The notes: generated by a model from the sequence alone, not told the origin. A stretch of 64,000 nucleotides of DNA from a bacterium (GCA_028719205.1 JAQUKH010000005.1:1-64000), one strand, 5' to 3'. Counted from the first letter of the stretch, positions 52,412 through 57,003 are shown. Translations and numbers: made by a program.

Positions 52412-52966
52412 ATGGAAGATCATCTTGTTGTAGACTTCTTAAATGATTTAAGACTCGAAATTCGTGAAACAAAAAAAGAGCGAGCAGATTTTATACGTCA
52501 GAAGTTTACCTATGTGATAGGATTATTAGGAATTGGAAGCATTTCAATTGGAAGTTTCAAACCCCTGATTCTTCTATATCTTGCTCCGATTATTGCGTTT
52601 ACTTTCGACCTATATATTGTTGGTGCAAGTTTTAAAATCAAAAGAGCAGGTGGTTTCCTTTGTCGGGAAGATTCTAAATCATCAAGTGAAGAAAAAAAAT
52701 GGGAGGAATGGGTTAGACAAAACAGGGATCCATTCCCCCAATTAGCAGGCTTGCTTGTGTCAATTATGGTACTCTTCGTATCAATGATAGTGCTTTGGTT
52801 AGAAGACAAAAATAATCTTTTTTATTGGGCATGGATCATAATTAATCTCCTGATTCTTATAGGAGTGTGGACATATAGTTATATACTTAATGAAGCAATT
52901 CACAAATTTGAAATAAAAAAAATAATAATTTTATTTATATCAATTTTTAAATCGAGGGGAAAATGA
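52412..52966 (+). CDS. 4TM membrane protein
   Basis: LRLEI...K-TM-TM-D...IKRAGGF...WEEW-TM-TM architecture. Confidence 0.75.
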   Translation: MEDHLVVDFLNDLRLEIRETKKERADFIRQKFTYVIGLLGIGSISIGSFKPLILLYLAPIIAFTFDLYIVGASFKIKRAGGFLCREDSKSSSEEKKWEEWVRQNRDPFPQLAGLLVSIMVLFVSMIVLWLEDKNNLFYWAWIIINLLILIGVWTYSYILNEAIHKFEIKKIIILFISIFKSRGK

Positions 52967-53520
52967 TCGATTTATTGGAATATATAAAAATTCAATGGGA
53001 AGATATACATCATTCTCGAAATCAAGAATGGAGAGTTCTAGCAATAATTATTGGAATTTTTTATGCCCTTTTTAATATAAATCCAGCAAGCTACAACGAA
53101 TTACATATAGCAATTACAATTTTAGGATTAATTGCATGTGGAATGGGTGTATATATGAGTGTTATTCATTGGTTTCTTTTTTATAATAAACTGCATGTAA
53201 TTTCGGCTTGTGAAAAAGAATTAGGCCTTGAAGTAAATTTTTATAAACCACCCTTTGCCGTTCAAGGGCTAATATTATTAAGCTATTTTTTTGTTGCAAG
53301 TATTTTAATCGGATGGTTAACATGGCTAATATCAGAAACAATTTGGATTTCTTATTTCATTTTTACTTTATGTTTTTTAATCGGTTTTAGCATTTGTATC
53401 ATTATTAAAATCAGGATTCAAAAGAAAATAGAAGAGAATACATCGATTACTTTCAAAAAAGGGAAAAAAAATGAGGAAAAACCAAAAACAACAGTTTCCA
53501 TTAATAGCGGAATTGAATGA
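52963..53520 (+). CDS. 4TM membrane protein
   Basis: EYIKIQWEDIHHSRNQEW-TM-TM...CEKELG-TM-TM; ATGA overlap with the upstream gene. Confidence 0.75.
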   Translation: MIDLLEYIKIQWEDIHHSRNQEWRVLAIIIGIFYALFNINPASYNELHIAITILGLIACGMGVYMSVIHWFLFYNKLHVISACEKELGLEVNFYKPPFAVQGLILLSYFFVASILIGWLTWLISETIWISYFIFTLCFLIGFSICIIIKIRIQKKIEENTSITFKKGKKNEEKPKTTVSINSGIE

Positions 53521-53965
53521 TTTGACTAATTGCCTCAATCAAATGGGAACAAAACCGCTTAAACTAATTGCTAATAAAGTTTATAGAGAAGTTAAAGAAA
53601 CCAAATGGGATGTTCCTATGTGGAGTTTTATAAGCAACAAAGGAATTATTAAAGATAAAAAGCTACTCACCAATCCAGAAGATACTTTTCAATTCTCACT
53701 TGCTAATCAACATTCAAAACAAGATTTTCATGTGCACAAAAAAATATTTGAGATTTATGTCTCTTATTCAAAAATAGAAATATTGTATATCAATAAAGAG
53801 AAAACAAAAGAATCCTTAAAAATTTTCAGAGGGATATTAATTGTCCCTCCTATGTTGATACATAAAATTAAATTGCACGGTATCACCTTTGTTTTCCAAG
53901 TTGGGGCTAAAGGATCTAAAGTCCATAATGATAAAAAAATATTAAAATCTTCAGCTTATAGATAG
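53471..53965 (+). CDS. Cupin-fold protein
   Basis: FHVHKKIFEIY...ILIVPPMLIHKI (H-x-H...E...H metal motif). Confidence 0.7.
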   Translation: MRKNQKQQFPLIAELNDLTNCLNQMGTKPLKLIANKVYREVKETKWDVPMWSFISNKGIIKDKKLLTNPEDTFQFSLANQHSKQDFHVHKKIFEIYVSYSKIEILYINKEKTKESLKIFRGILIVPPMLIHKIKLHGITFVFQVGAKGSKVHNDKKILKSSAYR

Positions 53966-54129
53966 TATTGTTTTGCAACATAGGCTATCTTTTAATATAA
54001 AATTATATTTTATAAACTTAATATATTTGATCATTTGGCAATAATTTGCTTATAGCTATTTTCCAAATTATAAATAATGATGTTTGTTTTTTGTTTTTTA
54101 TAGTAAAATTATAATATCCAATTAAAGGG

Positions 54130-57003
54130 GTGTTCATGTCTAGTTTAACATTTATTCACCTTTCTGATCTTCATATTGGGCAAAAGGACGAAAAGGGAAA
54201 TGAGCCGCCACAGGATTGCGCCGGACTTAATGCAAAAAAACTAATTAATGATTTACTAAAAATACGAGAAGAAAAATCTATCTCATTTCGTCCAGACGAA
54301 ACATTTTTTTTAATCTCTGGGGACATTACGAATACATGTAAGTGGGATCAATTCGAAATTGCAATAATGTTTATTGAGCAAATTCGGAAACAATATTCTC
54401 TTAAATTTGGGGGATTTGAGCTATCTTCTGATCACTTCATTTGCATTCCAGGAAACCATGATTTAAAATTAGCTGAAATAAAAAATCCCAAAGTATCTTT
54501 TTTTGAAAAATACTTGCCATTTAAATCTTTTTTGGATTTTGTAACAGACTATTCATCTTTTGCGCGTAGTTTTACTCACGAAAATCCATTTATTAATATA
54601 AGATTTGATACTCCACTTAGTACACAAATAATTTGGATTGATACTTGCAGGACTATAGATTATTTTGACTCTCGCCCCAAAGAAAAACGAAAATCTTTAT
54701 TACAGGGGACTTTCGGATATATAACAGAAGATTACTTAAGCTCCTTAGAAAAGACTCTTTTACTCGAAGATCAAAAAGTCCTCAGAATTGCTTTAATGCA
54801 TCATCCATTAACAGACTTATCTACTGGGGATAGTACCCCATCGGATGGAATTTCTATTAGTAAATTAATTTCTTGGCTAACAAAACATAAATTTGCTTTA
54901 ATTTTCTCTGGACATATTCATTATACCGAGGCAACTGGATATTCAAAACCTGATCATAAAATGCCAGAATACCCTGGAAGCATTAGTGAAAACAGTGTTG
55001 GGCATTCATTTCCAACAAAACCTTCTGTTGAACCAATTAGTTATGAAATAATTCAGATTGAAGAACACTTTGGAAAAACAGTTAGCAGGAAATATACCAG
55101 GCAGTTCTCATGGAGCACAAACACATTGGCAGATGAAAAAAACAAATGGACTGATAATAGCGAATCGAAAAATCCTATAAATCTACCAAAAATTTATAAT
55201 ACAAAAGATTTTCTAGGTATTAAAGGATCAAATGTATGGCACGTAATATCACATTGCAAACCGGGAAAATTTGAAAATTACGGAGCACAATCACCTGGTG
55301 AAGTCGTTAATAGTTTGATGCTTCACTTACTTAGCCAACCACAAAATGATTTAATTCATGTAACAGAAAAAACCAAAATTAATTGGAATATTTTTGCAGG
55401 AAACAATCTGCTATTTGTTATAGATTCTCCACATTTTAATCCTTATACAAGACAATTACTAACAGACTATAAAACCTATTTAGCTGGCGGGAATGTTGAA
55501 TTCATTGATGAACCGAATCAATTAAATGTTAAACAAAGAATTCAAATCGGCAACCAACCTCCTTTAGCTTCAACTAAACAACCTGAGCAAACTCTTTTTG
55601 ATTGTTATGAAGATTACTTACTGATTATGCGCCTTCCTGGCTTTGAACCTCATAAAAAAACCAAGAAGTTGGAAATAAAAGATCTTGACGAGAATAAAGT
55701 TATTTGGATAATTGCAGGTATCCATAGCAAAGCTAGCTATGCTGGAACACAGATATTTAATGCAGATAATTTGCAAAAATTCACTTCCAGTCTAAACAAA
55801 TTAAGTAATGGTAAAATTCCTAAATATTTTGAAATTGTATACAAAGTCCCTCAGGAAAAACCCAAAATAACTGATTTTTCCTCACTGGAACGCGTATATT
55901 TCAATGTTTTACGTCTAAAAAAAGATGTTGCAATGGGAGATGATTTACCATCCGGAGTTGCTGTTATCTTATCCTCTAATAAGAATGTTTGGGCAAAAAC
56001 TCCGGTCCATATAGTTCATTTAGATCCAGTTGCAGGATGCAATTATTCATGCCCAGAATGTATTGAAAATGAAATGAAAAATAAAAATTTATTTTTATCA
56101 ATTAAAAGTTGTATACGTATTCTTTGTGATTTAAAAAAAATTGGCTGTGAACGTATAAATTTTTATGGTGGTGAACCGACTCTTCATCCAGAATTTCCCG
56201 AGTTATTAAATGCTACTTCTGCAATGGGATATAATTCACTTCTAGTAACTAACGGTTCACAATTGCATAATCAAGATATAACTAATTCATTAATTTATGC
56301 TTCTTCCAAAATTCATATTCGGGTTTCCTTAGATGCACATAATCAAAATACTTACGAAAAGATTCATGGAATCAATAAAAATACAGCTGACGTTGGAGTG
56401 ATTAAAGATACGATTAAGTTTTTAATTAATCAGGGAATCCCTGTTAGTATTTCTATTTTGGTAAGGCCAGAAATTGTAAACGAATTAGAATCTGCCGTTA
56501 ACTTTTGGAGAAATGCCCATGCAACAGCAATAATACTTCGTCCCCTTACCGCAAGAAATGGCAAAGGACCTATCTTACCGAGTAAAACCGATGATTCTCA
56601 AACAATACTAAGTATACTGAATAAAAACAAGGGATTTGTTCTCACACCTTTTTGGTTTCATAATTTACTTCAAAATCACCCAGAAACTCAGAAAAAAGAT
56701 TATTATACGTGTTATTCTGGTTATTATCGTATAGCCATATCTCCATATAATGAATCATGTCCAAAAGCGGAAAAGGAAATAGAGAGTATCCCACTTACGC
56801 AAACCAACGATGCATGGATTTCCCTTTGCACATATCGCCGTTTTGACCCCAATTTTGGTTGTAAATACCCCTCAGATTTAAATCAATGGCTTAAAGATTA
56901 CAGACAGCAAATTTTAAATAAAATTGATCCTTCAAAAAACTGTAACGAAATATTTTGTTGCAGAGATGGATATAATCGCCAGATATCCTCTCTTACAAGG
57001 TAA
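54130..57003 (+). CDS. Calcineurin-like metallophosphoesterase fused to a radical SAM domain with Twitch/SPASM-like tail
   Basis: HLSDLH, SGDIT, PGNHD, HHP and GHIH; CNYSCPEC, GGEP, VTNG and RVSLDA; C-terminal Cys cluster. Confidence 0.85.
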   Translation: MFMSSLTFIHLSDLHIGQKDEKGNEPPQDCAGLNAKKLINDLLKIREEKSISFRPDETFFLISGDITNTCKWDQFEIAIMFIEQIRKQYSLKFGGFELSSDHFICIPGNHDLKLAEIKNPKVSFFEKYLPFKSFLDFVTDYSSFARSFTHENPFINIRFDTPLSTQIIWIDTCRTIDYFDSRPKEKRKSLLQGTFGYITEDYLSSLEKTLLLEDQKVLRIALMHHPLTDLSTGDSTPSDGISISKLISWLTKHKFALIFSGHIHYTEATGYSKPDHKMPEYPGSISENSVGHSFPTKPSVEPISYEIIQIEEHFGKTVSRKYTRQFSWSTNTLADEKNKWTDNSESKNPINLPKIYNTKDFLGIKGSNVWHVISHCKPGKFENYGAQSPGEVVNSLMLHLLSQPQNDLIHVTEKTKINWNIFAGNNLLFVIDSPHFNPYTRQLLTDYKTYLAGGNVEFIDEPNQLNVKQRIQIGNQPPLASTKQPEQTLFDCYEDYLLIMRLPGFEPHKKTKKLEIKDLDENKVIWIIAGIHSKASYAGTQIFNADNLQKFTSSLNKLSNGKIPKYFEIVYKVPQEKPKITDFSSLERVYFNVLRLKKDVAMGDDLPSGVAVILSSNKNVWAKTPVHIVHLDPVAGCNYSCPECIENEMKNKNLFLSIKSCIRILCDLKKIGCERINFYGGEPTLHPEFPELLNATSAMGYNSLLVTNGSQLHNQDITNSLIYASSKIHIRVSLDAHNQNTYEKIHGINKNTADVGVIKDTIKFLINQGIPVSISILVRPEIVNELESAVNFWRNAHATAIILRPLTARNGKGPILPSKTDDSQTILSILNKNKGFVLTPFWFHNLLQNHPETQKKDYYTCYSGYYRIAISPYNESCPKAEKEIESIPLTQTNDAWISLCTYRRFDPNFGCKYPSDLNQWLKDYRQQILNKIDPSKNCNEIFCCRDGYNRQISSLTR

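Follow-up and report, generated by a model that had tools for sequence, protein, structure and literature searches.

A rare radical-SAM protein family with an exchanged N-terminal domain: a candidate one-gene conflict protein in a variable segment at a bacterial tRNA-Leu gene

Avs (AVAST), the bacterial NACHT proteins and DSR are single polypeptides in which a conserved C-terminal module is joined to an exchangeable N-terminal effector of the TIR, SIR2 or phosphoesterase type, and this logic of a swappable effector plus a conserved sensor underlies bacterial and eukaryotic innate immunity. Two DefensePredictor systems contain a metallophosphatase: DS-8 is a metallophosphatase-NACHT protein and DS-9A a metallophosphatase, and catalytic mutants of both are reported to lose defence (PMC13092281). 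Another system, Ophion, is described in its preprint as consisting of a radical S-adenosylmethionine (SAM) protein, OpnA, a PHP protein, OpnB, and a phosphoribosyltransferase, OpnC (bioRxiv 10.1101/2025.09.30.679545). Here we analyse a block at 52412..57003 of a 64,000-nucleotide stretch of bacterial DNA (GCA_028719205.1 JAQUKH010000005.1:1-64000, referred to as the window), in which one gene encodes a fusion of a metallophosphoesterase, a middle domain and a radical-SAM domain. Comparison with its relatives suggests, with moderate confidence, that this 957-amino-acid gene product is a self-contained one-gene conflict protein, most likely anti-phage, belonging to a rare and undescribed family. 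We read it as a putative single-gene conflict protein, with the phosphoesterase as its effector, because it has a conserved C-terminal module, an exchanged N-terminus, no fixed partner gene, a patchy spread and an island location, a combination typical of one-protein immune sensors. An initial annotation had taken the block to be a four-gene cassette; our analysis corrects this gene-cluster reading, the relevant unit being one gene and not four. The gene and its parts are located in the window as follows.

54130-57003, + strand: fusion gene, 957 amino acids from a GTG start; metallophosphoesterase, middle domain, radical-SAM domain and Cys-rich tail
54148..55020, + strand: calcineurin-like metallophosphoesterase domain, approximately residues 7-297, with five motifs; the exchangeable 'effector' position
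55192..55965, + strand: conserved middle domain, residues 355-612, alpha/beta, of no named family
55972..57000, + strand: radical-SAM domain with twitch/SPASM-like Cys-rich tail; CxxxCxxC at C637/C641/C644, GGE motif

An ATG at 54136, which has an AGGGG Shine-Dalgarno-like word ahead of it, is the likelier start and gives a protein of 955 amino acids, the length also of the database copy of the fusion protein (P0001).

Searches reveal 18 full-length relatives of the fusion protein at E<=1e-134 among 5.8 billion clusters, and 43 representatives of the family at E<=1e-30 among 1.84 billion clusters. The part common to all family representatives (about 40) is a core of approximately residues 355-957, comprising the middle and radical-SAM domains, with a mean column identity of 39% in the former and 45% in the latter. 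In 15 close relatives a phosphoesterase lies ahead of this core. The N-terminus of 24 further relatives is a CAP12/Pycsar-type TIR in nine, TIR_2 in eight, Metallophos in two, SIR2_2 in one and AbiEii in one, while three have nothing, one of these being a fragment that starts inside the phosphoesterase as judged by eye. A maximum-likelihood tree with 42 rows was built from the radical-SAM part; five of these rows, labelled 'radical-SAM only', may be gene fragments. Mapped onto this tree, the N-terminal labels need 12 changes where the minimum possible is six, and the well-supported branches force at least two changes for the phosphoesterase and at least three for each TIR type. The alignment and tree show that the predicted N-terminal domain has been exchanged repeatedly among metallophosphoesterase, two kinds of TIR, SIR2 and AbiEii. 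They also show that the conserved unit is a predicted alpha/beta middle domain together with a twitch/SPASM-like radical-SAM domain, in which the catalytic and auxiliary cysteines are invariant. In other settings these domains are immune effectors. The initial annotation holds up in one respect, in that the large protein resembles those of defence or conflict systems. A possible split form at one related locus (L030) was rejected; it comprises a 468-amino-acid open reading frame (ORF) divergent from a radical-SAM-only gene, without the middle domain (hhalign probability 0.1).

Avs, the NACHT proteins and DSR resemble the present family in being single polypeptides with a conserved C-terminal module and an exchanged N-terminus. 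However, the conserved module here is a radical-SAM domain plus an alpha/beta domain; a STAND or other P-loop nucleoside triphosphatase (NTPase) is absent, as is any sensor of the repeat or tetratricopeptide type. Should the family prove defensive, radical-SAM chemistry combined with the middle domain would represent a new kind of conserved module for the effector-plus-sensor logic. We found no paper in the literature that describes the fusion of a radical-SAM protein to TIR, SIR2 or a metallophosphatase, and the family is rare and undescribed.

The phosphoesterase domain is matched by Pfam Metallophos over residues 7-264 (E 2.6e-14). All five calcineurin-like motifs named in the initial annotation are intact, and 14-15 of the 15 phosphoesterase-type relatives retain DxH, GD, GNHD, H and GHxH. 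Two NCBIfam models for anti-phage proteins also match, namely DS9_1 'anti-phage phosphoesterase' (NF053862; E 2.1e-21, 76.3 bits, cut-off 420) and DS8 (NF053861; E 4.1e-14, 51.3 bits, cut-off 790), with both scores far below the equivalog cut-offs. By these profile matches, the domain is homologous to its counterpart in the validated DS-8/DS-9A anti-phage effectors. As reported (PMC13092281), DS-8 is like the fusion protein in having a homologous metallophosphatase at the N-terminus of a single-protein system, but its partner is a NACHT NTPase in place of the middle and radical-SAM domains, whereas DS-9 pairs the metallophosphatase with a separate HAD phosphatase gene. No NACHT or HAD domain was detected by Pfam in the fusion protein or in the five nearest + strand ORFs (52412-53965 and 57389-59612). 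If the fusion protein is defensive, it would provide a second context for this recently validated metallophosphatase effector.

The radical-SAM domain is recognized by Pfam Radical_SAM over residues 634-791 (E 5.6e-14), and its model has a predicted local distance difference test score (pLDDT) of 93.2. In a 47-row alignment C637, C641 and C644 of the CxxxCxxC motif and C861, C900 and C943 of the tail are invariant, and C938 is conserved in at least 90% of rows; the CxxxCxxC domain with a Cys-rich tail is thus as it had first been described. Structural comparison of the model gives the following fold matches.

SkfB: Z 24.9, 284 aligned residues
BlsE: Z 24.0, 297 aligned residues
SuiB: Z 23.8, 290 aligned residues
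DesII: Z 22.3, 317 aligned residues
MoaA: Z 20.2, 257 aligned residues
Viperins, 11 of 12 rows: Z 18.8-19.6, 237-253 aligned residues; the remaining row, 6b4c, Z 17.4

The SkfB and DesII alignments reach model residue 357 of 357, and the best fold matches, SkfB and BlsE, extend through the C-terminal tail. Sequence profiles match SkfB (6.9e-14), GDGT-MAS (2.5e-13), BlsE (2.1e-11), MoaA (5.7e-9) and viperins (about 2e-7). The tail carries conserved cysteines suited to a predicted auxiliary Fe-S cluster, as in twitch/SPASM-type tails. The canonical SPASM motif has seven cysteines, and the spacing in the present tail, with three invariant cysteines and one or two nearly so, is by eye unlike it.

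The initial annotation had drawn an analogy to viperins, which is not sustained by these comparisons. The viperin family model NF038283 scores 57.4 bits against a cut-off of 180 and aligns over 11-147 of 281 profile positions; PADLOC pVip matches are likewise partial (E 5.5e-20, 9-147 of 257 profile positions); and SkfB, BlsE, SuiB and DesII are structurally closer. The fusion protein and pVip share a radical-SAM core with CxxxCxxC, but the former misses the cut-off, has two further domains and has the closer relatives just named. Viperins, unlike the fusion protein, are not known to carry a Cys-rich twitch/SPASM-like tail. Profile and model together place the domain as a predicted twitch/SPASM-like enzyme and not a viperin.

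A rival reading, which we regard as rather unlikely, makes the radical-SAM domain itself the antiviral enzyme. Like viperin, it would turn a nucleotide, a nucleoside or a sugar-nucleotide into an analogue that is toxic or terminates chains; the middle domain would bind the substrate, and the N-terminus would prepare it or serve as a second effector. The invariance of the radical-SAM catalytic residues and of the tail cysteines fits such an enzyme as well as it fits a sensor. The close fold matches include enzymes with nucleoside, nucleotide or sugar-nucleotide substrates (BlsE, DesII, MoaA and the viperins), and these, like the partial pVip matches, point in the same direction. Ophion, a radical-SAM defence system, is proposed to act in this way (bioRxiv 10.1101/2025.09.30.679545); it is like the fusion protein in combining a non-viperin radical-SAM enzyme with a phosphoesterase. 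Ophion, however, is spread over three genes, its phosphoesterase is of the PHP and not the calcineurin-like type, and it includes a phosphoribosyltransferase; the accessible text describes no middle domain or effector exchange. The peptide-modifying SkfB and SuiB match as well as the nucleoside enzymes do, so the fold singles out no one substrate class, and the viperin cut-off is missed. Moreover, a single role in substrate preparation fits poorly with exchange among TIR and SIR2 domains that cleave nicotinamide adenine dinucleotide, a phosphodiesterase and an AbiEii nucleotidyltransferase.

The same matches raise a second alternative, that the protein is a non-immune biosynthetic or maturation enzyme (a twitch/SPASM peptide or cofactor maturase) fused to a phosphatase and borne on an island, which we consider quite improbable. 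SkfB, SuiB, PqqE, anSME and a tungsten-cofactor maturase profile are among the best sequence or structure matches, one relative has been given the name 'sulfatase maturation enzyme AslB' by JGI, and several relatives have housekeeping neighbours. The fusion protein differs from the enzymes with the best profile and fold matches (SkfB, SuiB, anSME, PqqE, BlsE, DesII and MoaA) in having no precursor-peptide or pathway neighbours and in carrying N-terminal domains of the immune type. No conserved partner or precursor gene adjoins the core gene in 17 related loci, exchange among TIR, SIR2, AbiEii and phosphoesterase is not the pattern of a biosynthetic enzyme, and the family is extremely patchy. 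Among 41 genomes of relatives, the fusion gene is present in one, that of the window itself (G000). A pattern scan of one genome per species in 185,579 species gives three full-length or core matches (L001-L003), a count limited by the patterns used.

The middle domain has no Pfam match in 18 members. Its model is a confidently predicted alpha/beta fold (pLDDT 88.2; predicted template-modelling score 0.84) with conserved residues H375, C376, K380, D432, S433, N437, D495, R501, P503, W526, K534 and E568. H532, in the 'HSK' word of this domain, is conserved in less than 80% of 42 rows. A Foldseek search of the model against PDB and BFVD has no match at E<=0.001. In the VIA search the best matches (Z 8.7) are a BcsB domain and the N-terminal domains of glycosidases from families GH115, GH67 and GH84, a score which by the tool's own note is within the range of common arrangements. 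A phospholipase D enzyme is named in no title among the 50 entries listed. Structural neighbours of a homologue (P0007) in the ESM Atlas are unnamed domains (template-modelling score 0.59-0.63). Among PDB profiles a match to methylglyoxal synthase, the only one, covers 29 residues at E 0.097 and was dismissed as chance level. The most conserved polar residues of the model follow predicted beta-strands (H375/C376; D432/S433/N437; K534), a placement that may point to a crevice for a ligand or an active site.

In the conflict-protein reading that we favour, the middle and radical-SAM domains together would be the sensing and switching part. This module would bind SAM, probably along with a nucleotide-like small molecule, and on infection it would release the N-terminal domain, here the phosphodiesterase related to DS-8/DS-9A. 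The phosphodiesterase would then break down nucleic acid, a nucleotide or a cofactor of the nucleotide type, so that phage growth would stop (abortive infection). A bolder version, which we offer tentatively and think unlikely, is that the radical-SAM domain senses infection and acts as the switch in a new class of single-protein immune receptors, where it would stand in for the STAND NTPases of Avs or NACHT proteins. The TIR, SIR2 or phosphodiesterase effector would then be gated by the binding of SAM, or by radical turnover at the Fe-S cluster, with the middle domain as the read-out; in a concrete form, the protein would guard the SAM pool and fire once a SAM-degrading enzyme of the phage had drained it.

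The genomic context of the relatives bears on a role in defence. The 21 related loci reduce to 17 distinct ones after merging near-identical contigs, and defence or mobile genes are found in 6 of the 17, as listed below.

L012: type I restriction enzyme and McrBC directly upstream
L018: methyltransferase, resolvase and DRT-like polymerase
L023: ThsB-like TIR
L019: HEPN protein
L027: ParE
L014: transposase piece

The family seems to be confined to uncultured bacteria of mostly anaerobic habitats, and such hosts may explain why it was missed by screens in E. coli and Pseudomonas. Searches of viral contigs gave generic radical-SAM matches only.

Several observations weigh against the conflict-protein reading. 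The count of 6 in 17 comes without a background control, so it is suggestive and does not show enrichment of defence genes; in several of the 17 loci the recognised neighbours are only housekeeping genes (tRNA synthetases, IMP dehydrogenase, GMP synthase) or uncharacterised. The related loci were found via two conserved peptide patterns and so lean towards closer relatives. A search of 72,556 plasmid records and 50,697 phage records found no relative and yielded generic radical-SAM matches at most. All catalytic residues are kept and the core is well conserved, which suits a functioning enzyme no less than a sensor, and no immune sensor built on a radical-SAM domain is known to us. PADLOC and NCBIfam recognise the domains and no system, in agreement with the earlier remark that no named system matches the architecture, and the role of every family member is a prediction from sequence.

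Upstream of the fusion gene lie three small genes, which had been proposed to form one system with it. Their positions are as follows.

52412-52966, + strand: TM1, ORF of 184 amino acids with four hydrophobic stretches
52963-53520, + strand: TM2, ORF of 185 amino acids with four hydrophobic stretches; 4-nucleotide overlap with TM1
53471-53965, + strand: ORF3 (cupin-like), 164 amino acids; 50-nucleotide overlap with TM2
52963..53965, + strand: TM2-ORF3 gene pair, overlapping and separate from the fusion-gene system

All four ORFs of the block are present as first annotated, including the two overlapping small genes with four predicted membrane spans each. In the four-gene proposal a nucleotide-like product of the fusion enzyme would be sensed by the two membrane proteins and the cupin, or would act through them. 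Small membrane proteins are common effectors of signalling defence systems, and the four genes are on the same strand, closely spaced and all located between one pair of tRNA-tail repeats. However, by blastp and tblastn (E<=0.1) relatives of TM1, TM2 or ORF3 are found at none of the 21 loci that encode relatives of the fusion protein, at least 2 kilobases (kb) upstream of the core gene being available in 13 of them. Nor do the 17 distinct loci share any neighbour family, save one unrelated pair, which is how the proposed check of neighbourhood conservation turned out.

The small genes also differ from the fusion gene in their own relatives. For ORF3 there are 27 further clusters, with identities of 43-69%, and for TM2 there are 14, with 46-63%, so that their closest relatives are 69% and 63% identical, as against only 41-43% for the closest relative of the fusion protein. 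Seven TM2 clusters match ORF3 clusters in the size of the longest contig, whereas none matches the contigs of fusion-protein relatives. ORF3 is present in 2 of 401 genomes, G000 and G152. In the latter (L089 3785-4805) homologues of TM2 (49% identity) and ORF3 (59%) lie together with an 8-nucleotide overlap; this locus has no TM1 and no fusion gene, and the middle-domain profile has no match anywhere in the genome, which is 97% complete. Because the pair recurs in clusters and in G152 without the fusion gene, TM2 and ORF3 are best described, on comparative grounds, as a separate conserved pair. With a gap of 164 nucleotides between ORF3 and the fusion gene as a further point against it, the four-gene system is largely refuted by the comparative data and appears very improbable, and we found no support for the idea that the membrane and cupin-like proteins sense an enzyme product. 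Nor does the block resemble CBASS, Pycsar or Thoeris, as PADLOC and Pfam find no cyclase, CD-NTase or ThsB among the four genes.

In G152, an unrelated genome, the TM2 and cupin-like pair forms a small conserved two-gene module in a housekeeping setting, flanked by an FGE-sulfatase-like gene and by ORFs read by eye as glyQ, mutM and rlmN. None of the loci examined contains a relative of TM1, for which databases were not searched. That TM1 and TM2 are paralogues was rejected, as they have no similarity (E 1.0). TM2 has a weak Pfam 8xMP match (17.5 bits, cut-off 30), a name on which the literature yielded nothing of relevance, and PADLOC matches none of TM1, TM2 and ORF3. The assignment of ORF3 as a cupin is plausible: H87, H89 and H131 are invariant in its alignment (HxH...H) and E94 nearly so, its language-model neighbours include cupin clusters at 0.93-0.94, and one relative is named cupin by JGI. 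On the other side, none of 28 family members matches a cupin Pfam model and no solved structure matches the ORF3 profile below E 0.37, the two matches to viral nucleoproteins (E 0.37-0.41) being at chance level.

The block is situated in a segment anchored by a tRNA-Leu gene, with the following features.

50152-50238, + strand: tRNA-Leu(CAA), to which the variable segment 50239-61732 is anchored; Rfam agrees on the tRNA
52014..52033, + strand: copy of the tRNA-Leu 3' tail, left of the block, degenerate (18/20)
57149..57168, + strand: copy of the tRNA-Leu 3' tail, right of the block, degenerate (17/20)

Copies of the tRNA-Leu 3' tail (repeat family D1) begin at 51431, 52014 and 57149, and that at 51431 is exact over 25 nucleotides. 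The repeats which the initial annotation had placed around the block are indeed present on both sides, but they are degenerate, with 18 and 17 matches counted by eye over the last 20 nucleotides, and a search with the 25-nucleotide tail allowing up to 3 mismatches (two matches) does not recover them. The left and right copies are alike over about 75 nucleotides.

The site was compared with two genomes of the same genus. In one (G002) the tRNA tail is only 16 nucleotides from the homologue of window position 61733 onward (73% identity), and because of this junction the 11.5 kb of 50239-61732 are taken to be missing there. In the other (G001) the tRNA is followed by an intact gene of the 23S-rRNA-intervening-sequence type and other cargo, while the histidine kinase has different neighbours. 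As the segment is absent in the one and other cargo is found in the other, 50239-61732 is, judging from these sequences, a variable segment at tRNA-Leu that has been used repeatedly for integration. Like tRNA-anchored islands, it has a tRNA at one end and a repeat of its 3' end at the other and is absent from the same site in a relative. No integrase or recombinase domain was found by Pfam in the eight ORFs scanned, a set which does not include all small ORFs of 50239-61732. In the reading that we favour, TM1, TM2 and the cupin-like gene would be unrelated cargo of this integration hot spot.

The block is AT-rich, as initially noted, with a G+C content of 0.311 in 52034-57168 versus 0.388 in 1-50238, and the AT-rich zone extends beyond it to about 60.5 kb. 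Promoter-like sites occur at chance (30 observed, 28.9 expected); terminator-like sites are six against 2.7 expected, with no telling position between the genes. An Rfam scan of 49800-57500 detected the tRNA only. Public sequencing runs with matching DNA are three DNA runs of one landfill-metagenome study, one of which may be where this DNA came from, and no RNA runs are listed.

Traces of other material surround the tRNA. A 59-amino-acid remnant of a gene for a 23S-rRNA-intervening-sequence-type (four-helix-bundle) protein lies at 51684-51863 (+ strand); the intact 139-amino-acid gene of this type in G001 (L084 2401-2820, - strand) is directly beside tRNA-Leu. Direct repeats of 48 and 38 nucleotides with 81-82% identity (families D3 and D5) are present at 50320-50409 and 51246-51343. 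They follow the tRNA in the first copy and precede the tRNA-tail copy in the second, and are hence not collinear with the tRNA repeat. A 31-codon ORF at 57059-57154 (+ strand) runs from just 3' of the fusion gene into a GC-rich hairpin preceding the right tail copy, and a similar hairpin is seen by eye ahead of the left copy at about 51985-51997; the ORF is probably element-end sequence and not a gene. Immediately upstream of tRNA-Leu, 48372-50081 (+ strand) encodes a 569-amino-acid exported ankyrin-repeat protein, in the place of which G001 has a putative translation-GTPase-like (EF-G-like) ORF, so the upstream side of the tRNA also differs between genomes of the same genus.

Just outside the right tail repeat, 57389-59612 (+ strand) contains a gene for a 343-amino-acid trypsin-like protease, followed by one for a 363-amino-acid protein without any family match. 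The protease is matched by Pfam Trypsin_2 (E 9.3e-8), the PADLOC candidate PDC-S45 (E 3.2e-10), RT-Protease_XI (about E 1e-6) and phrog_7688. These two genes may be another candidate defence pair in the variable segment.

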